Below, in pieces: positions 2,177 to 38,586 of a stretch of DNA of 38,923 bases. Both the position numbers and the translations under genes were made by a program. Position 1 is the stretch's first letter; every line of letters starts with the position of its first letter. The notes under the pieces are model-generated. The model did no database searches. It saw nothing but the letters and a program-made list of their open reading frames with translations, and had not been told where the DNA came from. The stretch comes from a virus, in the UHGV virus genome UHGV-0153024. One strand, given 5' to 3'.

Positions 2177-2707
2177 TTACCTTAATTTATCAAGCTCTCG
2201 TTTATTTCTTTTATCATGTATATCATTAAGAAATAATATATTACTAGCAATGATACTAAATAACGCTATTATTTGTAGATATACTAATAACGCTGTGATA
2301 AAAAATCCAAACTTGCAGAACACGTGCTTATGCAAGGAAATGAAATCCAGATTTGAAAATATAGGTTTCGTTAAATTTATTATAACAATAGAAAATATTA
2401 CAATAGCTGAAATTATAATGGTTTTCACTATCAGCGTAATTCGCTCAATATCTTTTTCTGTTTCCTTATGATAGTTTATACTAGTTATTGTTGATGGCTT
2501 TACAATTGAACTTACAGCTGCAGGGTAAATATATGCAAGCCAAATACCTGCAATAGTGAAGATCATTGCAGAAATGTTTTGCAAGGTAGATAAAATATCT
2601 TTTATATCTGCATACGTATATTTGTCTCCGAACAAATAAGCAATAGCTATAATTGTTAGGAGAAAACATATGTGCAAAATTTTAGGTTTTATAATCATAC
2701 TATGCAC
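2177..2707 (-). CDS. Small integral membrane protein (176 aa, about four predicted TM helices); candidate RexB-like effector
   Basis: Four hydrophobic segments (ILHICFLLTIIAIAYLF; AMIFTIAGIWLAYIYPAAV; ITLIVKTIIISAIVIFSIVIINL; FGFFITALLVYLQIIALFSIIASNILFL); very AT-rich; start overlaps the upstream 400-aa gene by 8 nt. Confidence 0.6.
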   Translation of the reverse strand: MHSMIIKPKILHICFLLTIIAIAYLFGDKYTYADIKDILSTLQNISAMIFTIAGIWLAYIYPAAVSSIVKPSTITSINYHKETEKDIERITLIVKTIIISAIVIFSIVIINLTKPIFSNLDFISLHKHVFCKFGFFITALLVYLQIIALFSIIASNILFLNDIHDKRNKRELDKLR

Positions 2708-3902
2708 CTATTTTATGAATCTGCACTGCTGTATCATTATCAGCTTCTGGTTGTTCTATTATATCTTCATTTTTAAAACAATTCACCAAATCATTTCTAT
2801 GAGCTTTTACCACACTCATTAAATATGAAGAAGAGTAATGTTTGTTTCTGTTAGAAAGGTCAACGTGAATTTCATGGCGATAAACATATTCATCTAACCA
2901 AGTAGTTGAACCATTTTTCCCATTTATTTTGAATCCGATGCGTGCGTGATCATTCCCTACATTCTCATTGTTGTTTTCTGTATCTTCTGAAATAGGATTG
3001 TGGTTTTCTATATATTCATCGATGAGTTTAGTGAACTCTTCAGGCGTAGGCGTTCCTTCGACTAATAATTCAACGCGATGTTTTTTTGATAAAATAGGAG
3101 AGCTTCTTGAGAAAACATCTCCAACTGCATCAAATAACTTCTGCCATTTTTCCCGTGTATCAGGTATGTTTGTTTCTATTACGTCATGGTAAACAATGTG
3201 AGTGATTTTTTTACACAGTTCTTCTATGTTTGCTCCACTCGTGATCATCCTTGTTTGTTTAGTCTGTACTTTAAAAACTAAACTTTCATCATCACCTTGA
3301 GAAAAAAGAACACGTTTGTAATGAACGTCTTCAGGTGAGTCATTACGAGGACGAGTCATATCTATGACTTTTTTATTAGGATGCTCCATCCTAAAGTCAA
3401 CGTATGCTTTAATATAATGACAGAAAAGATCTGTATCCGTATTAGAACTTGGGAATCGTATGGATGCAATTTTGTTATATTCTGGAATTACCCAATAGTA
3501 GCAAGGTACGCCCCAGATATATTTACCGCCACCTTGAGTATCAGAGGCGGATACAACATTATCTGAAGTGCCGTCAATCTTACTTTCAGCATCTATACCT
3601 TGAATATTTCCAGAGTTATCACCAAGCGTTTTCCAGATAACAAATAGATAATCTCCTGTCGTACTGTCATATGAAATATTTTTACAGTATGCTTTTGTTC
3701 TTCTATTATTATCCTTTCCCCATGGAACAGATTGTTCAACTGTTCTTGAACAGATCCAGCTATGTAAGTTACACAGAACATGGGATAAGTTCTTTTCGAC
3801 TAATTCCGGCGATTTGCCTTGTCGTATTTTATAAAGGCCAAACATTTCTAAATCAAAAAATGTTATAATGCCGCGTTCAGTTTTAAAGTTGGTTTTACTC
3901 AT
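2700..3902 (-). CDS. Hypothetical protein (400 aa), first gene of the repressor-linked cargo operon
   Basis: Long AT-rich ORF directly downstream of, and co-oriented with, the CI-like repressor; purine-rich RBS (GAAGAGAAG) upstream of the ATG; no recognisable catalytic motif by eye. Confidence 0.65.
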   Translation of the reverse strand: MSKTNFKTERGIITFFDLEMFGLYKIRQGKSPELVEKNLSHVLCNLHSWICSRTVEQSVPWGKDNNRRTKAYCKNISYDSTTGDYLFVIWKTLGDNSGNIQGIDAESKIDGTSDNVVSASDTQGGGKYIWGVPCYYWVIPEYNKIASIRFPSSNTDTDLFCHYIKAYVDFRMEHPNKKVIDMTRPRNDSPEDVHYKRVLFSQGDDESLVFKVQTKQTRMITSGANIEELCKKITHIVYHDVIETNIPDTREKWQKLFDAVGDVFSRSSPILSKKHRVELLVEGTPTPEEFTKLIDEYIENHNPISEDTENNNENVGNDHARIGFKINGKNGSTTWLDEYVYRHEIHVDLSNRNKHYSSSYLMSVVKAHRNDLVNCFKNEDIIEQPEADNDTAVQIHKIGA

Positions 3903-7343: not shown

Positions 7344-8197
7344 GCACCATCCTGAAATGGGCGGGTAATAAAACCGCCATTATGTCCGAACTGAAAAAAT
7401 ACCTTCCTGCTGGCCCGCGACTGGTTGAACCTTTCGCGGGTTCTTGTGCTGTGATGATGGCGACGGATTACCCCAGCTATCTGGTTGCGGATATTAATCC
7501 TGATTTAATCAACCTCTATAAAAAGATTGCCGCTGATTGCGAAGCGTTTATATCTCGTGCCAGAGTTTTATTTGAGGAAGCAAACAGTGAGCTGGCTTAT
7601 TACAACATAAGACAGGAGTTTAATTACTCAACTGAAATTACTGATTTCATGAAGGCGATATATTTCCTGTATCTCAATCGTCACGGTTACCGTGGTTTAT
7701 GTCGCTATAACAAGAGCGGGCATTTCAACATTCCCTACGGTAATTATAAAAATCCGTATTTCCCTGAAAAAGAAATTCGCGCATTTGCAGAGAAAGCCCC
7801 GCGGGCAACGTTTATCTGCGCCAGCTTTGATGAAACGCTGGCGATGTTGAAGGCGGGGGATGTGGTGTATTGCGATCCGCCTTATGACGGTACGTTTTCC
7901 GGCTATCACACTGATGGTTTCACTGAAGATGACCAGTATCACCTGGCATCCGTTCTTGAACATCGATCATCTGAAGGTCATCCGGTCATTGTTTCTAACA
8001 GTGACACATCCCTGATTCGTTCGCTGTATCGCAATTTCACTCACCACTACATCAAGGCAAAACGCAGCATCGGCGTGTCGGCTGGCGAGAGTAAATCTGC
8101 AACAGAAATCATTGCTGTTTCCGGGGCGCGCTGCTGGATGGGATTTGATCCTTCGCGTGGCGTGGATAGTTCTGCTGTGTACGAGGTGCGTGTATGA
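7340..8197 (+). CDS. DNA adenine methyltransferase (Dam-like, N6-adenine)
   Basis: SAM-binding motif (EPFAGSCAV) and catalytic DPPY motif (VYCDPPYDG); start [11 protein letters not shown]. Confidence 0.85.
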
Positions 8198-10608
8198 GTC
8201 ATGCCGATATGAGCGACTCTAGCGGCTTTAACGAGGCCGCTGCAGCATTTTCATGGAACGGCCCGAAAAAGGCCATAAACCCTTATCTGGACCCGGCGGA
8301 AGTTGCGCCGGTTTCTGCGCTTTCAAACCTGATCACTCTGTATGCTGCCGATAACGAGCAGGAACAGCTGCGCCGCGAGGAATTGAGTGAACAGGTCTGG
8401 GAGCGTTATTTCTTTAATGAATCCCGTGATCCTGTCCAGCGCGAAATGGAGCAGGATAAGCTCATTAGTCGGGCAAAGCTGGCGCATGAGCAGCAGCGTT
8501 TTAACCCGGACATGGTCATTCTGGCGGACGTCAGCGCCCAGCCCACCCACATCAGCAAGCCGCTGATGCAACGTATCGAATACTTCAGCAGCCTGGGGAG
8601 GCCAAAGGCTTATTCCCGCTATTTGCGTGAGACGATTAAGCCATGTCTGGAGCGACTGGATTGTGTACGCGACAGTCAGCTATCTACTTCTTTCCGTTTT
8701 ATGGCAAGCCATCAAGGGCTGGAGGGCCTGCTGATCCTGCCTGAAATGAGTCAGGATCAGGTGAAACGCCTGTCTACTCTTGTCGCTGCGCATATGAGTA
8801 TGTGTCTTGATGCCGCTTGTGGTGATTTGTACGCCACCGATGATGTTAAGCCAGAAGAAATCCGCAAGACATGGGAAAAGGTGGCAGCAGAAACCCTGCG
8901 ACTGGATGTCATCCCGCCTGCGTTTGAGCAACTCCGCCGGAAAAGAAACCGCCGTAAACCCGTGCCCTATGAACTCATTCCGGGTTCGCTGGCGCGTATG
9001 TTGTGCGCCGATTGGTGGTATCGGAAATTATGGAAGATGCGTTGCGAATGGCGGGAAGAGCAGTTGCGTGCTGTCTGCCTTGTCAGCAAAAAAGCATCTC
9101 CCTATGTCAGCTATGAAGCCGTGTTGCATAAACGTGAGCAGCGCCGTAAGTCGCTGGAGTTTTTCCGTTCTCATGAACTGGTGAACGAAGACGGCGACAC
9201 GCTGGACATGGAGGATGTGGTAAACGCCAGCAGCAGCAACCCTGCGCATCGCCGCAATGAGATGATGGCCTGTGTTAAAGGTCTGGAGCTTATCGCGGAA
9301 ATGCGCGGTGACTGCGCCGTTTTCTACACCATCACCTGTCCGTCACGTTTCCATTCCACGCTAAATAACGGCAGGCCCAACCCGACCTGGACAAATGCGA
9401 CGGTAAGACAAAGCAGCGATTATCTGGTCGGTATGTTTGCTGCATTTCGTAAGGCGATGCACAAAGCCGGGTTGCGCTGGTATGGCGTGCGGGTGGCTGA
9501 GCCGCATCACGACGGCACAGTTCACTGGCACCTGTTGTGTTTCATGCGCAAAAAAGACCGCCGCGCCATTACTGCATTGTTGCGTAAGTTTGCTATCCGT
9601 GAAGACCGCGAGGAGCTGGGCAATAACACGGGGCCGCGCTTTAAGTCTGAGCTGATTAACCCGCGCAAAGGAACGCCGACAAGCTACATAGCGAAATACA
9701 TCAGTAAGAACATTGACGGGCGTGGTCTGGCTGGCGAGATCAGCAAGGAAACGGGTAAATCTCTGCGTGATAACGCTGAATACGTGAACGCCTGGGCGTC
9801 TTTGCATCGTGTTCAGCAATTCCGCTTCTTTGGCATTCCGGGGCGTCAGGCTTACCGTGAACTGCGATTGCTGGCTGGTCAGGCGTCAAGGCAACAGGGG
9901 GACAAAAAAGCAGGTGCGCCGGTACTGGATAACCCGCGCCTTGATGCCATCTTGGCTGCTGCTGATGCTGGTTGTTTTGCCACCTACATCATGAAGCAGG
10001 GCGGCGTACTGGTTCCCCGTAAATATCACCTCATCAGAACCGCTTATGAAATCAACGAAGAGCCGACCGCCTATGGCGATCACGGCATTCGTATTTATGG
10101 CATCTGGTCACCCATTGCAGAGGGCAAGATCTGCACTCATGCAGTGAAGTGGAAAATGGTTCGTAAAGCCGTTGACGTTCAGGAGGCGGCAGCCGACCAG
10201 GGCGCTTGCGCCCCTTGGACTCGTGGCAATAACTGTCCCCTTGCTGAAAATTTGAACCAACAGGAGAAAGATAAATCAGCTGATGGGGACCCCAGAACGG
10301 ACATTACCAGCATGGATGACAAGGAGTTGCACGATTACCTGCACAGTATGAACAAAAAAGAGCGCCGGGAACTGGCTGCAAGGTTACGCCTGGTGAAACC
10401 GAAACGGCGTAAAGACTACAAACAGCGAATTACAGACCATCAGCGACTGCAGCTCGTCTATGAGCTGAAGTCCAGAGGATTTGATGGTAGCGAGAAAGAG
10501 GTCGATTTACTCCTTCGCGGCGGCAGTATTCCGTCAGGAGCAGGCTTGCGTATCTTCTATCGGAACCAGTGTTTGCGGGAAGATGATAAGTGGCGGAACC
10601 TGTATTAA
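8194..10608 (+). CDS. A: Replication initiation protein A (rolling-circle endonuclease, P2 gpA-like)
   Basis: 804 aa; HUH-type motif ([12 protein letters not shown]); position after the early region as in P2. Confidence 0.9.
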
Positions 10609-11194: not shown

Positions 11195-11481
11195 GAAACG
11201 TTGCCCCCAAGAGGATTCATTCTGATGGGGGACTATTTTGGGCAACGAGTGAAACGAGGCGTTAGGTGGACGGCCATTTTGATAAGTGATCGTCCGCTTT
11301 TTGTTCTGAGTTCAAGCGATGGATTTAACACACTGGTTGAAGCAGAAGTATCTAAGTTCAATTTATATTATTTGAAGGGCACTGGTCTGATGTAGTACGA
11401 TTTTTGCCGGAGATGGCATGTTCTATATTGATCTCATCCATATAATGATTGGTATTATTAGCTTAGTTTAAAGAGGATTGA

Positions 11482-13059
11482 ATGGATATCAACTATGTTG
11501 TTTCAAAAATGGGGTTCGTAGATGATCTTATTAATGCAGGTTCATTTGATTCTGCCTATAAAAATGTAAAGGATATTCTTAACGGTATCGATGAGATAAA
11601 TACAATCAAAGAAAATAGAATAATTATATTATCTAATTTGGCCGGAAATCTTATTGATATCGGAAATTTTAGTAATGTAAAAAATATAGCGGAGGAAGGC
11701 TTAAATATCTTTATAAACAATAAAAATGAATTTCTGACTATAATGAAAGAATCTTTATATTACTATAACTTGGCAAATGGAATGAGCGCAGTTCTTGATT
11801 TTAATCCTAATGACAATGCAGATATTGATAGTTTCATTAAGCTGAATGATGTAAAAAATAATTACTGGAAAGCGTTTAAACTTTCACAAGAAGATGGATG
11901 GGTGCCCCCTGATTTAATAGTTAATCTAGCTAATGTATTAAAAAAACAATATCGTATATCTGAATCAATGGATTATTATGAACAAGCAATATCTATTGAT
12001 AACTCAATTCCTCAGGCGTGGGTAAACAGATCTGAGGCATTAGAATTGCTTAATGAATTATCTACAACATATACATATAAAATGATTAAAGAAGTTATTC
12101 GAGGTTATGAGTGTGCAATAAAGTCAGGGAAATGTTTTCCTTCATGGAAGATTGCTCTTCAAAGAAAAATAAAGTACAACGAAAGTATATTGAGTGAATC
12201 ATGTGTATATGGCATAGAGGATATAAGTACAGATGAAAGGCTCACGCAGGAGGAGTATGATACTTTATCAAACTACCAGAGGTTTTGTATAGATAATAAT
12301 CTAATGTTGTCTGATCATTCGCTATATTGCAATTGTTATGCGTCATCTAAAGATAATATAACTATTGCGACCACCGAGGAAGGTGTGTTTGGTGATTTTA
12401 TAGTGCCAATGGAAATGGTGTTAAATAGACTTAAAGCTGAGTATTCCTTAGCACGAAAAATGTTTTTTGAATATAAGGTTGATAGTGAGTTTTTTGATGA
12501 GGATTCGGAGGTATGTTATTCTGAATTGTATAATGGAGAAATATTGTATGAAAATGTTGAGAAGTTAAGGGTTGCATTTAGAGCTTGCTTTGGTATCTTG
12601 GATAAAATAGCAGTTGCTCTGTGTCAATTATTTGATTTAAAACCAGATAGAGGACATATATACTTTCATAACTTCTGGCGGATTAGTGATGAAAAAAGAA
12701 AGCTTAAAATAAACAAAATAAATAATAAAGGATTGCTGGGTTTGTTTAGTATTGCTATGGATTTGAATGATAAAAATGGTGAGCTTGCTTTTTTTAAAGA
12801 ATGGAGGAATGATTTAGAACATAAACTGTTAGTTATTCACGAGAAAGACATGTTAGTTGATTTATATAATTCTTATGGATTTTTTGATGAGATGAGGTTT
12901 ATTGAGAAAGAAAAGTTTGAGAAACAGCTCTTACAACTCATGAAAATTGTGAGATCAGCCGTTATTCTTTTTGTGTTTACCATACGTATAGAGGGGAAAA
13001 AAAGTATTCCTAAAGATATGTTGACCATTAAAAATACCATCGAGAGAAAAGTATTGTAG
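11482..13059 (+). CDS. Orphan 525-aa protein with N-terminal TPR-like repeats and C-terminal HEPN-like Rx4H motif; candidate anti-phage defence gene
   Basis: AT-rich island in the A-cos hotspot; TATAAT at 11441-11446; RBS AGAGGA 5 nt before the ATG; helical-repeat N-terminus (YYEQAISIDNSIPQAWVNRSEALELL); motif W-R-N-D-L-E-H at codons 441-447 (nt 12802-12822); own terminator. Confidence 0.8.
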   Translation: MDINYVVSKMGFVDDLINAGSFDSAYKNVKDILNGIDEINTIKENRIIILSNLAGNLIDIGNFSNVKNIAEEGLNIFINNKNEFLTIMKESLYYYNLANGMSAVLDFNPNDNADIDSFIKLNDVKNNYWKAFKLSQEDGWVPPDLIVNLANVLKKQYRISESMDYYEQAISIDNSIPQAWVNRSEALELLNELSTTYTYKMIKEVIRGYECAIKSGKCFPSWKIALQRKIKYNESILSESCVYGIEDISTDERLTQEEYDTLSNYQRFCIDNNLMLSDHSLYCNCYASSKDNITIATTEEGVFGDFIVPMEMVLNRLKAEYSLARKMFFEYKVDSEFFDEDSEVCYSELYNGEILYENVEKLRVAFRACFGILDKIAVALCQLFDLKPDRGHIYFHNFWRISDEKRKLKINKINNKGLLGLFSIAMDLNDKNGELAFFKEWRNDLEHKLLVIHEKDMLVDLYNSYGFFDEMRFIEKEKFEKQLLQLMKIVRSAVILFVFTIRIEGKKSIPKDMLTIKNTIERKVL

Positions 13060-13063
13060 TATA

Positions 13064-13098
13064 GTTTCATCGAGCGATGAAACGGTCTGTTTTTCTTT
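13064..13098 (+). terminator. Rho-independent terminator of the 525-aa gene
   Basis: Perfect 9-bp stem GTTTCATCG/CGATGAAAC with 2-nt loop (13064-13083) followed by a T-rich run (13090-13098), 5 nt after the stop codon. Confidence 0.6.
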
Positions 13099-13381
13099 AT
13101 AGTTTTGTCATAAAAAAGAGATTTCCTGCTTAAAATTTGGCTATTACAGAGCAACTATGTATGTTCCTCGCTCACAGTAGAGCTTCATCTTTGTAAGTCT
13201 GTATGTTTCGTTTTTCAAGTGGTCATTCAGATACGGACTTTCACTTCTCTTAGACAGTGCATGACTATGCTGCATGAAATCGCATGATCGTTTAAGGATC
13301 GTTTTTGCTAAGGCTCGCCAGAACTAGCGGGCTTTTACGTAGAACATGCAGGTGCATGAAAACCACTACATAAAGCGGGCA

Positions 13382-13400
13382 GGCGTGGCGGGGATACGAG
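13382..13400. other. Candidate cos site (GGCGTGGCGGGGATACGAG)
   Basis: GC-rich 19-mer between the hotspot and portal gene Q, where P2/186 cos lies; first 13 nt match my recollection of the 186 cohesive end (GGCGTGGCGGGGA...). Recollection-based. Confidence 0.35.
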
Positions 13401-13559: not shown

Positions 13560-14609
13560 TCAGCCTCGTTTGCTCTTAAGTCCTAAGTCATAGGTTTCAA
13601 AACGGATCACCTCTTCACCCAGCCAGTTGTTAAGCTCCTGCAGTCGCTTTTGCAGTGGCATCAGCTCATTGCGGACGAAAACACGGCTCGCCTTTTCCAC
13701 ATCACCGAAGCCGCCAGTGTTGTTGGGAATGATACCCATCATTTGCGGCGGTACGCGGTGTGCCGCCATCATGTCGTCCCGACTCACGTTCTTGATGTTC
13801 AGAAATTCATCCTTCGCCGCGACTTCCGACAACGGGATGATCTGAAGCCCGTCCTTTTTGCCGTTAGGCGAGTACATAAACAGGTTACGGAAGTTACCAG
13901 GACCTTTGGCACTTTTCATTGCGTTGCGGAGGTTGTTCACATCCTCCTGGTTCTGCGCGGCGTCGGTCATGTACATGATGAAGCCCGCATGGCTGCCGTT
14001 AATGTAATACTTCCGGCGGAACAGCGTGGCGGACTCGTTGAGCAGGGCGGATGGAATGGCAGAAAGGTAACCTGGCAGACCATAAATCTCCTGGTTGATA
14101 TCCGGCTCCATCAGGTGGAAGACGTTACCTTTTGTGAACTGATACGGCTGTGTCGTCAGGCTGTATTGCACAAACCAGTATGTTTCAAGGTCAAGCCCGC
14201 GCCGGGTGTATTTTGCCAGTGCAGGCTCCAGCGAAATAACTTCACCGAAACGGTTCGTGCGCTTCTCCAGGTAGCCGTTACCAAAAACCAGATAGTCCTG
14301 CACAAAACGGGTAAATGCCTGCTGACTGAGAAGACGATGCGGAATATAGGTACTGCTGATAATGTCACGCTTAACACTGATGGGGGAGCTGTGATGCACA
14401 GCGGCGCGGAAGGTGCGCGCCAGTCCGTCAAAGCTGACGGGCGGCTCATACCAGCGATCTGTCTGTACGCATTCCACATAGTCCAGCAGTTCGCGGCGGT
14501 CAAGTACTGGAACGGGATCACCGAAGCTGAATGCTTCGGCTGAAGTCTGGCTTTTATGCTGAATCTGGTTCGTCGACGCAGCGCGGTTCTTCTTACTCTT
14601 TCCCATCAA
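13560..14609 (-). CDS. Q: Portal protein (P2 gpQ-like)
   Basis: 349 aa; position and orientation as P2 Q, divergent from O; overlaps P by 4 nt. Confidence 0.85.
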   Translation of the reverse strand: MMGKSKKNRAASTNQIQHKSQTSAEAFSFGDPVPVLDRRELLDYVECVQTDRWYEPPVSFDGLARTFRAAVHHSSPISVKRDIISSTYIPHRLLSQQAFTRFVQDYLVFGNGYLEKRTNRFGEVISLEPALAKYTRRGLDLETYWFVQYSLTTQPYQFTKGNVFHLMEPDINQEIYGLPGYLSAIPSALLNESATLFRRKYYINGSHAGFIMYMTDAAQNQEDVNNLRNAMKSAKGPGNFRNLFMYSPNGKKDGLQIIPLSEVAAKDEFLNIKNVSRDDMMAAHRVPPQMMGIIPNNTGGFGDVEKASRVFVRNELMPLQKRLQELNNWLGEEVIRFETYDLGLKSKRG

Positions 14610-27058: not shown

Positions 27059-27454
27059 TCAAGCTGGCTTTTCCGGCCAGCTAATCTCTGCATTAGTGTT
27101 AGCGTCAATCCTGCTCAGCAATACCCGGTATTGCTTCCACAATGGCAGCGCTACGGTTTCTGCATCTGTCGCCATACTCAAATCAACAGCATCCTGTAAA
27201 ACGCTAATCTGTTGTGTCGCCTCACTCATCAGTGCGTTTTTTGTAGCCAGATTATTGGCTATTTTCTGCTGTTTTGCTGCCTCAAGTTCTTTATTAGTTG
27301 GCGGTGGCGCACTAAAAACATCGTTATCGTAATGCCAGCCGATACCAACACCATCGGTAGAGAGAATGGCACTTGCTGATTCAGGCCACTCTGACTCGCC
27401 ATCCCAGATAACAATATTTTCTACGATACCATTTTTGATAATTGCATAGTTCAT
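27059..27454 (-). CDS. Tail fibre assembly protein (Tfa-like chaperone)
   Basis: C-terminus LPLWKQYRVLLSRIDANTNAEISWPEKPA matches the conserved Tfa C-terminal motif (cf. lambda Tfa ...[22 protein letters not shown]...). Confidence 0.7.
   Translation of the reverse strand: MNYAIIKNGIVENIVIWDGESEWPESASAILSTDGVGIGWHYDNDVFSAPPPTNKELEAAKQQKIANNLATKNALMSEATQQISVLQDAVDLSMATDAETVALPLWKQYRVLLSRIDANTNAEISWPEKPA
27062..27082. terminator. Hairpin (AGCTGGC-loop-GCCAGCT) between the convergent GT9 and Tfa genes
   Basis: 7-bp stem with loop TTTTCCG, 14 nt after the GT9 stop and abutting the Tfa stop; candidate bidirectional terminator. Confidence 0.4.
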
Positions 27455-28135
27455 TTACGCATACTCCAAAATAATAATCACGCCAGCATTGCCCGGGTTG
27501 CCGTTGACATTCTGCGCCCCACCACTGGTTGCAGCGCCATTACCACCAGCACCATACCCACCAGGGCCAGAAATAAAGCTGCCGCCGCCAAGACCGGAAC
27601 CTACAGTCCCTCCGACTGCTGTTGGGGTTGCCATCACACCGGGTAGCCCGGCGTACCCGTTGCACAAAAGGGCACCCACGGTCGAAGTGCCACCCTGACC
27701 GCCCATGCCACATGACGCAGAGGAACCTGACGCGGTGCAGCCGTTGCCTGGCTGGCCTCCACCTGCTGAGAGATAAGAGCCAAAAGTCGTCGTGCCGCCC
27801 TGTGTACCATTGGTTATCGTCGACGCAATACCGCCATTACCACCCGCACCAATCGTGACAAGCACGGTTGATATCGCAGACAGGTTAAAGAGACCGCGTG
27901 CCATTCCACCGCCACCACCACCGCCACCCGCTGCGTTATAGTTTCCTGTGGAAGTTGCCCAGCCGCCGCCCCCACCGCCCCCAATAGCGATGACATCCGC
28001 GAACATTGCTCCGGGAGTTTTGGTGTAAGTGCCAGACGTCTTGATTATCTGCATGCCAATCAGACGACCGACTGCGCCGTTATTTACTAAACCAACGTTT
28101 ATGAAAATGCAGAGATAACGGCTAACTGGCATCAT
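27455..28135 (-). CDS. Glycine-rich tail fibre distal (receptor-binding) segment, inverted relative to H
   Basis: 226 aa with long poly-Gly/Gly-rich repeats; directly upstream of the co-oriented Tfa; adjacent to the DNA invertase, as stfE-tfaE-pinE in e14 and the Mu G segment. Confidence 0.65.
   Translation of the reverse strand: MMPVSRYLCIFINVGLVNNGAVGRLIGMQIIKTSGTYTKTPGAMFADVIAIGGGGGGGWATSTGNYNAAGGGGGGGGMARGLFNLSAISTVLVTIGAGGNGGIASTITNGTQGGTTTFGSYLSAGGGQPGNGCTASGSSASCGMGGQGGTSTVGALLCNGYAGLPGVMATPTAVGGTVGSGLGGGSFISGPGGYGAGGNGAATSGGAQNVNGNPGNAGVIIILEYA
28080..28107. other. Candidate Hin/Gin-type recombination (crossover) site
   Basis: TTATTTACTAAACCAACGTTTATGAAAA has the AAACC-NN-xGTTT core and flanks resembling hix/gix sites; lies 50 nt upstream of the invertase gene, inside the 5' end of the inverted fibre ORF. 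Confidence 0.35.
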
Positions 28136-28156
28136 CTCCGGTTTTTATTCAGGGGG

Positions 28157-28729
28157 ATGATCATGCTTATTGGCTATGTACGCGTGTCAACAAATGACCA
28201 GAACACCGATTTGCAACGCAATGCACTGAACTGTGCGGGATGTGAGCGGATTTTTGAGGATAAAATCAGTGGCACCAAGTCCGACAGACCGGGGCTGAAA
28301 AAGCTGCTCAGGACACTATCGGCAGGAGACACGCTGGTTGTCTGGAAGCTGGACAGACTGGGGCGCAGTATGCGGCATCTTGTTACGCTGATAGAAGAGA
28401 TGCGCCAGCGTGGCGTGAATTTCCGAAGCCTGACTGACAGTATTGATACCAGCACCCCAATGGGCCGTTTCTTTTTTCATGTCATGGGTGCCCTGGCTGA
28501 AATGGAACGCGAACTGATAGTTGAACGTACCAGGGCGGGGCTGGCTGCAGCTCGTGCTAAAGGCAGAGTAGGTGGACGCCGTCCTAAGTTGACCAGCGAA
28601 CAGTGGGCACAGATTGGGCGTTTACTCGAGGCCGGAGAATCAAGACAGCGTATTGCACTGATTTTTGATGTAGGCGTTTCTACCATTTATCGAAAATTTC
28701 CGGCAAATAAGAACAATAAATCTCCCTGA
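28157..28729 (+). CDS. Serine DNA invertase (Hin/Gin/Pin/Cin family)
   Basis: 190 aa; N-terminal catalytic motif MLIGYVRVSTNDQNTDLQ (active-site Ser), conserved core, C-terminal HTH (VSTIYRKF). Confidence 0.9.
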   Translation: MIMLIGYVRVSTNDQNTDLQRNALNCAGCERIFEDKISGTKSDRPGLKKLLRTLSAGDTLVVWKLDRLGRSMRHLVTLIEEMRQRGVNFRSLTDSIDTSTPMGRFFFHVMGALAEMERELIVERTRAGLAAARAKGRVGGRRPKLTSEQWAQIGRLLEAGESRQRIALIFDVGVSTIYRKFPANKNNKSP

Positions 28730-36253: not shown

Positions 36254-37939
36254 TTATCCTAATCCTGGCCATACCATGACGATGATTGTCCCTGCCAGCG
36301 TCAGCAGGACGTTGGCGATTGCGTAGGTGCCCGCATAGCCCAGCGCAGGGATGTTACTGCGAGCTGTATCACTGATGATCTCCATTGCCGGCGCGCAGGT
36401 GCGTGCGCCCATCATTGCGCCGAACAACAGTGCGCGGTTCATTCGCAATACATAAGCACCGAACAAGAAACAGATAACCACGGGCACAAGACTGACAATT
36501 AATCCGGCAATCAACATCTGACCGCCAATCGCGCCCAGGCCGTTATTAATACCGCTACCGGCGCTCAGACCAACGCCTGCCATAAACACCATCAAGCCGA
36601 ACTCTTTCACCATGCTTAATGCACCTTGCGGAATGTAACCGAAGGTCGGGTGGTTAGCACGCATAAAGCCCAGCATAATTCCGGCGAATAACAACCCGGC
36701 AGCGTTCCCCATGCCGAAACTGAATGTGCTGAACTGGAAGGTGATCATCCCGATCATCAGCCCAATAACAAAGAAGGCGCAAAATGCCAGCAGGTCAGTG
36801 ACCTGGCTGTGAATCGAGATAAAGCCGATGCGATCGGCGATGGTTTTTACGCGACGGGCATCACCGCTGACTTGTAAAACGTCACCTTTGTTAAGCACGA
36901 CGTTGTCATCTATCGGCATCTCAATCTGGCTACGAATGACGCGGTTAAGGAAGCAACCGTGATCGGTCAACTTCAGTTGTGCGAGACGTTTACCTACAGC
37001 GTTATGGTTTTTAACGACCACTTCTTCAGTGACGATACGCATGTCGAGAAGGTCACGATCGAAAACTTCTTTACCGTTACGGAAGCTGGGATCGAGTCGG
37101 GCATGGGCGTCGGGATAGCCTACCAACGCTATTTCATCGCCCATTTGTAGCACGGCATCACCGTCTGGATTTGCCAGAATCCCGTTACGTCGAATACGTT
37201 CAATGTAGCAGCCGGTTTGTCGATAAATACCCAGTTCACGCAGATTTTTGCCGTCGGTCCAGGCCACCAGCTCCGGGCCGACGCGATAGGCGCGGATCAC
37301 CGGTAAATAAACCTTACGGTTGGCATCAGTGTCCAGGCCACGTTCGCGGGCGATTTGCTGGGCGCTGGTCTGTAAGTCCTGATGCTGCAATTTCGGCAAG
37401 TAACGCGCACCAACAATCAAACTCACCAGACCGATTAAATAGGTTAAGGCATACCCGAGGCTCAGATTATCCAGTGCCAGTGAGAGCTGCCTGCTTTCCA
37501 TGCCGAAATGACGCAGTGTATCGCCAGCACCGACCAGAACCGGTGTCGACGTCATAGAGCCTGCTAACATACCGGCCGTCAGGCCAATATCCCAGCCAAA
37601 CAGCTTACCTAACCCTAAGGCGATCACCAGCGCACTGCCAACCATCACCAGTGCTAACATTAGGTAATTTTTCCCATCGCGAAAAAAAATGGAAAAAAAG
37701 TTCGGTCCGGCTTCGACCCCGACGCAGAAAATAAACAGCATAAAGCCAAGATTAAGCGCATCGGTGTTAATGCTGAAATGTTGTTGGCCTAATAACAGCG
37801 ATACGACTAAAACGCCAATGGAATTACCCAGTTGGATCGAACCAAGTCGTAACTTTCCGAGACATAGCCCAAGCGCGAGGACCACAAATAATAACAGAAT
37901 GTAATTCCCATTTAACAATTCGGCGACGTTTATATTCAC
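36254..37939 (-). CDS. ybjL: Putative transport protein YbjL (AAE-family, duplicated membrane domains with central TrkA-C-like domains)
   Basis: 561 aa, multi-TM at both ends; recognised from memory as E. coli YbjL. Confidence 0.85.
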
Positions 37940-38208
37940 GGAGGCTAACTTCTTGTTTACTAGTAAGCTGTTGAAAGAAATGGTAATTTACGATAATGTT
38001 TTTTACCAGAATTCAGGGCGCAGATTCATTCAGCGCACCTAAACGATAGTAAAGTAACAATATATTTTACTAGTGTAATCACATTAGGTATCAACGGCTA
38101 TATGAATTGCGTTGGCCTATATTAGCATGGAATGCGAAGCGGCTTTATCTTACTGAACGCCACACTGGCGAAAAATGTGTTCGATAGACGCAGTGTCAGG
38201 AGGAACGA

Positions 38209-38586
38209 GTGAAACATAAACAACGTTGGGCGGGGGCAATCTGCTGTTTTGTCCTCTTCATTGTGGTGTGCCTTTTTCTGGCGACGCACATGAAAGGCGC
38301 TTTTCGGGCTGCCGGGCATCCTGAAATCGGCTTGCTATTTTTCATTCTTCCTGGAGCAGTTGCCAGTTTCTTTTCACAGCGTAGAGAAGTCCTGAAACCT
38401 CTATTTGGCGCAATGCTGGCGGCACCCTGTTCAATGCTCATTATGCGGCTGTTTTTTTCACCGACGCGCTCATTCTGGCAAGAGCTGGCATGGTTACTAA
38501 GCGCGGTGTTCTGGTGTGCGCTGGGGGCACTGTGTTTCTTATTTATCAGTAGTTTGTTTAAACCACAGCACAGAAAAAATCAGTAA
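38209..38586 (+). CDS. ybjM: Inner membrane protein YbjM
   Basis: 125 aa with about four hydrophobic helices; position between ybjL and grxA as in E. coli. Confidence 0.75.
   Translation: MKHKQRWAGAICCFVLFIVVCLFLATHMKGAFRAAGHPEIGLLFFILPGAVASFFSQRREVLKPLFGAMLAAPCSMLIMRLFFSPTRSFWQELAWLLSAVFWCALGALCFLFISSLFKPQHRKNQ

Follow-up and report, generated by a model that had tools for sequence, protein, structure and literature searches.

A one-gene cargo island in the A-cos slot of a P2-like prophage

The DNA analyzed here, UHGV virus genome UHGV-0153024 (38,923 nucleotides [nt], referred to as the window), is a P2-like prophage. Our subject is one of its genes, located on the plus strand at positions 11482 to 13059, whose open reading frame (ORF) encodes a 525-amino-acid (aa) protein with TPR repeats and an HEPN domain of the LA2681 family (Pfam PF18733, 131.9 bits, E = 2.5e-38). 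The gene lies downstream of the replication endonuclease gene A (8194-10608) and of a DinI-like gene, and upstream of cos and the portal gene (13560-14609, minus strand). In P2, the slot between A and cos holds tin and old. We read the P2-type cos core, GGCGTGGCGGGGATACGAG, at 13382 to 13400 on the plus strand; it belongs to the context outside the cargo, and the same motif is present in the P2-like clones of Rousset et al. With cos at this position, the HEPN gene therefore occupies the A-cos slot. The slot between A and the portal gene is an experimentally supported defense hotspot (PMC9122126; PMC9519451). In the RefSeq annotation of the Escherichia coli H2 prophage, the gene order is integrase, CI, CII, Dam methylase, replication endonuclease, a 62-aa ORF, the DinI-like gene, the HEPN gene, portal, terminase, and capsid, and a query covering the island (window 11200-13300) matched H2 at 99.9% identity.

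The limits of the cargo were placed by alignment and base composition. When the window was aligned with the prophage of E. coli C21, which carries CdiI-like and RNase A-like cargo, homology ended at about 11335 and resumed at about 13160. These approximate limits define a variable island of about 1.8 kb (11335 to 13160) with a GC content of 0.27 to 0.34, compared to 0.52 to 0.55 in the flanks. The 525-aa ORF itself has a GC content of 0.305 (0.27 at third codon positions, GC3), while gene A stands at 0.534 (GC3, 0.59) and the portal and terminase (Q/P) genes at 0.554. In about 200 E. coli genomes, only the sequences flanking the island were matched. The 10 best flank-only records, C21 among them, carry on the opposite strand a pair annotated as a contact-dependent growth inhibition (CDI) system immunity protein and an "RNase A-like domain-containing protein"; in C21, the record that we opened, this pair occupies positions 1754 to 2891 of the retrieved locus (L014).

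No second ORF of at least 60 aa, other than those antisense to the coding sequence, is present in the island, and neither an Rfam match (E ≤ 1) nor a tandem repeat was found in it. On the cos side, the prophage sequences show no differences as far as about 13407. Beyond this point they part ways in a second cargo slot, which extends to about 13560 between cos and the portal gene and is empty in the window. Beside HEPN islands that are at least 99.4% identical, this second slot holds a 354-aa PIN-domain gene (strains H2 and M8), a 555-aa KAP P-loop NTPase (AF5), or a 120-aa ORF (ECONIH5). The HEPN gene is thus a one-gene cassette and the sole gene of its cargo slot, because the island has no second ORF and the neighbors on the cos side sit in a separate slot. 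An earlier note on this DNA had placed the gene in the variable P2 A-cos hotspot and had described it as an autonomous moron; gene order, the cos core, and the strain alignments bear out the first claim, and the C21 alignment, together with the lack of a second ORF, RNA match, or repeat, supports the second. We also considered a two-gene system formed with the PIN-domain gene of H2 and M8. This was rejected, as the PIN gene lies across cos in the separate slot and is swapped or absent while the HEPN island stays constant (≥99.4%).

The ECONIH5 copy of the HEPN gene (L004, 3783-5324) has an annotated length of 513 aa, against 525 here, and its DNA match is 1 nt shorter. It probably carries a frameshift near the 3' end that alters the last HEPN helix, and it may be a decaying copy.

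The expression signals were read directly or taken from a consensus scan, all on the plus strand. A TATAAT -10 box without a convincing -35 element is present at 11441 to 11446, and a Shine-Dalgarno sequence, AAGAGG, at 11471 to 11476 has the ATG 5 nt downstream of it. Past the stop codon by 5 nt, an intrinsic-terminator-like hairpin (13064-13083) with its T-run spans 13064 to 13093; it has an 8-bp stem, a 4-nt loop, and the tail GGTCTGTTTT. This hairpin is near-identical in all strains that carry the island, with a single stem mismatch. The ORF, the AT-rich island, the TATAAT box, the ribosome binding site, and the terminator were thus all present as the note had described them. On the 5' side of the gene, the scan revealed a weak terminator-like hairpin at 11405 to 11418 (5-bp stem with 3 GC pairs), which may insulate the HEPN gene from the DinI-like operon.

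Domain architecture and the Rx4H motif

The 525-aa protein is clearly a full member of the LA2681 HEPN family. Its Pfam match (cutoff, 27 bits) covers aa 309 to 504 and profile positions 9 to 204 of 204, so that the guess of an "LA2681-like" protein had named exactly the family found. The same search returned sub-threshold TPR matches at aa 145 to 193. In the structure predicted with AlphaFold2 (pLDDT, 87; pTM, 0.89), three parts can be distinguished. The N-terminal part, aa 1 to 240 (11482 to 12201, plus strand), is a TPR-like alpha-solenoid built of 34-residue helix-turn-helix repeats, which we propose as the sensor or regulatory domain; a TPR-like N-terminal half had been anticipated, and the solenoid runs over about 240 aa. 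The C-terminal part, aa 307 to 507 (12400 to 13002, plus strand), is the HEPN domain and the proposed RNase effector. Here, a structure check had been called for, and a four-helix up-down HEPN bundle was found. The closest structural matches of this part are the HEPN-MNT toxins 8xdj, 5yep, and 7ae2, at a sequence identity of 8 to 11%.

Between these two parts lies a conserved connector, aa 241 to 306 (12202 to 12399, plus strand), which is confidently modeled and falls outside the Pfam HEPN_LA2681 model, which begins at aa 309. In an alignment of 37 homologues, H279-x3-C283-x-C285 and D291 of the connector are invariant. The H-x3-C-x-C element could serve in metal binding or as a hinge. The three residues H279, C283, and C285 are encoded at nt 12316 to 12336, and C369 is also invariant.

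The predicted catalytic motif of the HEPN domain, Rx4H, reads R442-N-D-L-E-H447 (12805 to 12822, plus strand). In the 37-sequence alignment, R442, N443, E446, and H447 are invariant down to 38% identity, and further invariant residues (E311, N315, R316, K318, E320, R325, R363, and D374) fall in the first two HEPN helices. The assignment of R442 to H447 as the Rx4-6H signature of HEPN RNases is supported by the exact coordinates, the Pfam match, the invariance, and the structural matches to HEPN folds.

Searches against other collections gave little more. NCBIfam and PHROGs returned no usable match for the protein, and no match to ApeA, Abi_2 (AbiD/AbiF), or another named HEPN Abi family was found in Pfam, PADLOC, or NCBIfam. 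Pfam detected no NTPase family, and the model is an all-helical TPR and HEPN structure. A profile search of the Protein Data Bank (PDB) sequences revealed no solved LA2681 relative, only TPR matches.

Conservation, selection, and mobility of the gene

The gene had been called an orphan. This was not upheld, as we found more than 180 homologues, the protein belongs to PF18733, and RefSeq carries the family name. Nearly all of the homologues are about 515 to 545 aa long, with 93 to 100% query coverage and 38 to 85% identity, and full-length homologues are spread across the Proteobacteria. At a cutoff of E ≤ 1e-30, an exhaustive HMMER pass over 1.84 billion cluster representatives found 121 clusters, nearly all of which keep the TPR-plus-HEPN architecture; with the cutoff relaxed to E ≤ 1e-10, the number rose to 380, and most matches were full length. 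Of 5,426 complete E. coli genomes, 11 carry the gene, with the family name in every RefSeq annotation.

Among the copies from E. coli, Yersinia, Salmonella, and Enterobacter, the ratio of nonsynonymous to synonymous substitution rates (dN/dS) was 0.14 to 0.18 overall, 0.15 to 0.22 in the TPR part, and 0.10 to 0.14 in the HEPN part, values that place the gene under purifying selection. For distant homologues, identity is 33% over the TPR part and 49% over the HEPN part. The AT-richness is stable across the four host genera (GC, 0.305 to 0.319). Taken together, selection and composition are what one would expect of a gene that is functional, that moves horizontally, and whose recognition domain evolves faster.

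The neighborhoods of the homologues vary widely. In Cellvibrio, the gene is on an element resembling an integrative and conjugative element (ICE), along with a relaxase, AbiEii/DUF6088, Fic, a HigBA-like pair, and ArdA. The Pseudomonas homologue adjoins a PAAR-Ntox44 toxin, an integrase, and a transposase; the Yersinia homologue adjoins AbiEii and a satellite-like integrase/AlpA/primase module; and the Vibrio homologue is flanked by Mrr and a Cap4-like nuclease. In Salmonella, the gene adjoins antiterminator Q in a lambdoid prophage. Across these loci, the homologues are solo genes in a range of mobile or conflict settings and share no conserved partner. The HEPN gene moves as a single unit among P2-like prophages, lambdoid prophages, ICE-like islands, and chromosomal sites.

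Earlier descriptions of the family

The LA2681 family was named in the 2013 HEPN survey of Anantharaman et al., which scores its Rx4-6H motif as "Yes" and records its fusion to TPR (PMC3710099). In the literature searched, no paper other than this survey named LA2681, and "PF18733," "LA2681 family," and "TPR-HEPN" were not found. The gene is already present in a catalogue of P2-hotspot cargo. In their Table S5B, Rousset et al. (2022) list system #100 as "HEPN_LA2681/RNPP_C," with 33 occurrences and the remark "1 TM; Likely a RNAse" (PMC9122126). Where the available sequence of the system #100 representative could be compared with the 525-aa protein, over about 400 aa, there were 2 differences, so that the two are in essence one protein in one and the same hotspot. 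"HEPN_LA2681" appears at least 21 times in the accessible portions of Tables S5A and S5B, mostly in P2 hotspot rows (PMC9122126). System #100 was not cloned in that study (PMC9122126). A second survey, DefensePredictor (Science 2026), gives the label "Predicted novel defense gene" and a log-odds of about 9.1 to WP_244588239.1, a 335-aa member of the LA2681 family from E. coli (PMC13092281). The cloned-protein tables of DefensePredictor 2026 contain no mention of the family name and none of the diagnostic peptides (PMC13092281), and the protein is likewise absent from those of Rousset et al. 2022 (PMC9122126).

With regard to the "1 TM" remark, we rejected the reading as a membrane protein: the hydrophobic stretch at aa 483 to 501 contains K and R, falls within the Pfam model, and forms the final core helix of the HEPN bundle. 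Two similarly labeled entries of Rousset et al. were also rejected as the same protein. pFR103 ("Putative HEPN") is a different protein, and so is pFR83 ("HEPN-TPR"; BLASTP E = 5.2). The latter, from the P4 hotspot (Table S2B), shares with our protein the domain labels, the single-gene organization, and the location as hotspot cargo, but the domain order is reversed: in the 399 aa compared, the HEPN motif lies near aa 283 to 288, the TPR part is C-terminal, and this portion gave no Pfam match. pFR83 is listed among the additional tested systems (Table S2B), apart from the validated ones in Table S2A (PMC9122126). That listing is uninformative on the 525-aa protein, because pFR83 has no detectable similarity to it and the reversed domain order.

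These records decide how the gene should be ranked. The note had put it forward as the top candidate for an undescribed system, a claim that has to be given up, since the gene was already recorded as P2-hotspot cargo that is "Likely a RNAse" and a member of its family is already a predicted defense gene. The main outcome is thus that the candidate is a named, already catalogued family member, and the kind it belongs to, the single-gene HEPN defense of the abortive-infection type, is known. The TPR-HEPN gene is likely an anti-phage gene of a described family, as distinct from a validated defense system, and makes a sensible candidate that holds no surprise.

Proposed function and comparison with known systems

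We consider it probable that the gene encodes a single-polypeptide immune protein, sensor and effector in one chain, carried as a moron of the P2-like prophage and protecting the lysogen from other phages by abortive infection. This reading is supported by the family assignment with its invariant motif, the solo cassette, the hotspot location and the defense neighbors of homologues, the prior computational calls, the purifying selection, and the precedents of HepS and Tha. We are more confident in the immune RNase than in the TPR domain as a sensor or in the nature of the RNA target.

HEPN enzymes work as dimers, cleave RNA independently of metal, and have a composite Rx4-6H site (PMC3710099; PMC13092281). 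HepS, a single HEPN protein on Gifsy-1 of Salmonella, cleaves tRNAs in the anticodon loop once a phage tail-tip protein has activated it allosterically (PMC13043305). Tha is reported to be a tail-activated HEPN system of Staphylococcus aureus prophages (PMC11087260). Both are prophage-encoded, single-gene abortive-infection proteins that sense as well as kill, and they provide the mechanistic template for the HEPN gene. Because HEPN enzymes and these prophage defenses are established to work in this way, we infer the following mechanism. Two or more copies of the protein would pair their HEPN domains, forming a composite RNase site from R442 and H447 that would be held inactive in the resting lysogen. 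During infection by a foreign phage, the TPR domain would bind a protein or peptide made by that phage, or would lose an inhibitory contact. The activated RNase would then cut cellular RNA, which may be tRNA anticodon loops, mRNA, or rRNA, and the cleavage would arrest translation and abort the infection.

Compared with the described systems, nothing separates the protein from the LA2681 family, with which it shares the Pfam match, the Rx4H motif, and the TPR fusion; the family itself has been defined only computationally. The Avs/AVAST and TIR-NLR defenses of the STAND type also couple a TPR array, as the proposed phage sensor, to a killing effector, and they occupy the same P2 and P4 hotspots. 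Unlike them, the 525-aa protein has no STAND or P-loop NTPase domain, and any activation would therefore be independent of nucleotide-driven oligomerization. A bolder possibility, which we regard as doubtful, is that the LA2681 TPR-HEPN proteins form a distinct class of NTPase-free, single-chain immune receptors. In such proteins, the TPR domain would bind a phage protein or peptide and the connector, perhaps with H279-x3-C283-x-C285 as a zinc knuckle, would license HEPN dimerization and RNA cleavage, the whole being a self-sufficient cassette of P2-like and lambdoid prophages and ICE-like elements.

Several observations weigh against the proposed immune function. No experimental test of any LA2681-family protein was found in the literature searched. 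In PADLOC v2.0.0, no system-specific model matched the island gene, and only weak matches to TPR (E = 1e-4) and Csx1/Csm6 (E = 0.06) were returned. A tblastn search of 50,697 deposited phage genomes gave no match, so the gene has been seen only in prophages and islands. In Enterobacter, a close homologue is inserted by itself among housekeeping genes, and none of its neighbors is a mobile or defense gene. There is no acceptable -35 hexamer upstream of the TATAAT box, a two-hexamer scan made no promoter call there, and promoter-like sites across the region do not exceed the shuffled expectation (10 observed versus 12.5); for these reasons, the promoter of the HEPN gene, with a -10 box only, is a plausible candidate. 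In addition, the TPR domain could be an oligomerization or autoinhibition module instead of a sensor, and what triggers the protein, which RNA it cuts, and how many chains it assembles from are all inferred.

Among the other explanations, an addiction module fares best, although we judge it unlikely. Here, the HEPN RNase would be a selfish toxin, restrained by its own TPR domain or by a prophage factor and stabilizing the prophage or the island instead of defending the host. HEPN domains do serve as toxins in HEPN-MNT pairs, which provide the closest structural matches (8xdj, 5yep, and 7ae2), and toxin-antitoxin modules adjoin some homologues, as on the Cellvibrio ICE-like element and in the Salmonella lambdoid prophage. 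However, the HEPN-MNT toxins (SO_3166, PDB 5yep; 8xdj; 7ae2) are proteins of about 130 aa that are neutralized by an adjacent MNT nucleotidyltransferase, whereas the 525-aa protein is a TPR fusion without a partner gene. The island holds no MNT or other second gene and no RNA or repeat that could be a candidate RNA antitoxin, and the gene enters unrelated contexts alone, so that any antidote would have to be intrinsic. Moreover, toxin-antitoxin and abortive-infection functions overlap, which makes addiction only a partial rival to the immune reading.

It is a little less probable still that the gene serves the biology of the prophage itself or conflict between elements, for example, interference with P4-like satellites, superinfection exclusion of P2-like phages, or counter-defense against host immune RNAs. 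Phages and satellites do come into conflict at the P2 and P4 hotspots (PMC9122126), and RNases could in principle target CRISPR RNA (crRNA) or signaling RNAs. Against this, homologues unconnected with P2 or P4 are found in lambdoid prophages, on ICE-like islands, and at bare chromosomal sites, the tested P2-hotspot systems mostly act on unrelated phages and not on P2-like ones (PMC9122126), and no anti-defense family was matched. Least credible is a noncatalytic or housekeeping HEPN/TPR scaffold that binds a ligand or protein and rides as a passenger with no immune role: a good number of HEPN families are no longer catalytic or are nucleotide binders (PMC3710099), but the R, the H, and the polar N after the R are invariant family-wide (37 homologues), purifying selection is strong, the AT-rich composition is kept in four host genera, and the gene recurs in hotspots and mobile elements.

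If phage protection were shown, a compact one-gene TPR-HEPN system would join the validated defenses, and the protein would offer a tractable model of a repeat-domain sensor that controls an HEPN RNase without an NTPase switch. The practical value would be modest, given how few E. coli genomes carry the gene and that the family comprises only about 120 clusters at E ≤ 1e-30. As two published surveys have already flagged the gene or its family, confirmation would fill a gap and would not open a new field.

Other features of the prophage

The ends of the window hold chromosomal genes: on the left, a TetR-family regulator (20-586), which corresponds to RcdA in strain H2, and on the right, an Asp-Al_Ex/TrkA_C permease and YbjM (36254-38586). 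With host genes at both ends, the window covers the prophage in full, and the insertion site is in the rcdA-ybjL/ybjM region.

Between the integrase and the CI repressor, two overlapping ORFs on the minus strand encode proteins of 176 aa (2177 to 2707) and 400 aa (2700 to 3902), with a GC content of 0.29 to 0.36. The pair matches the PADLOC candidate pair PDC-M18B (5e-24) and PDC-M18A (2e-36), and no Pfam or NCBIfam match was found for it. This segment looks like a third cargo slot, since E. coli H2 carries a KAP NTPase there instead, and its two-gene system is less characterized than the HEPN gene. Farther along the prophage, a resolvase/invertase gene (28157 to 28729, plus strand) adjoins genes for tail fiber assembly (27059 to 27454) and a glycine-rich tail fiber tip (27455 to 28135), both on the minus strand; the arrangement from 27059 to 28729 resembles a Gin/Cin-type invertible segment that would govern host range.

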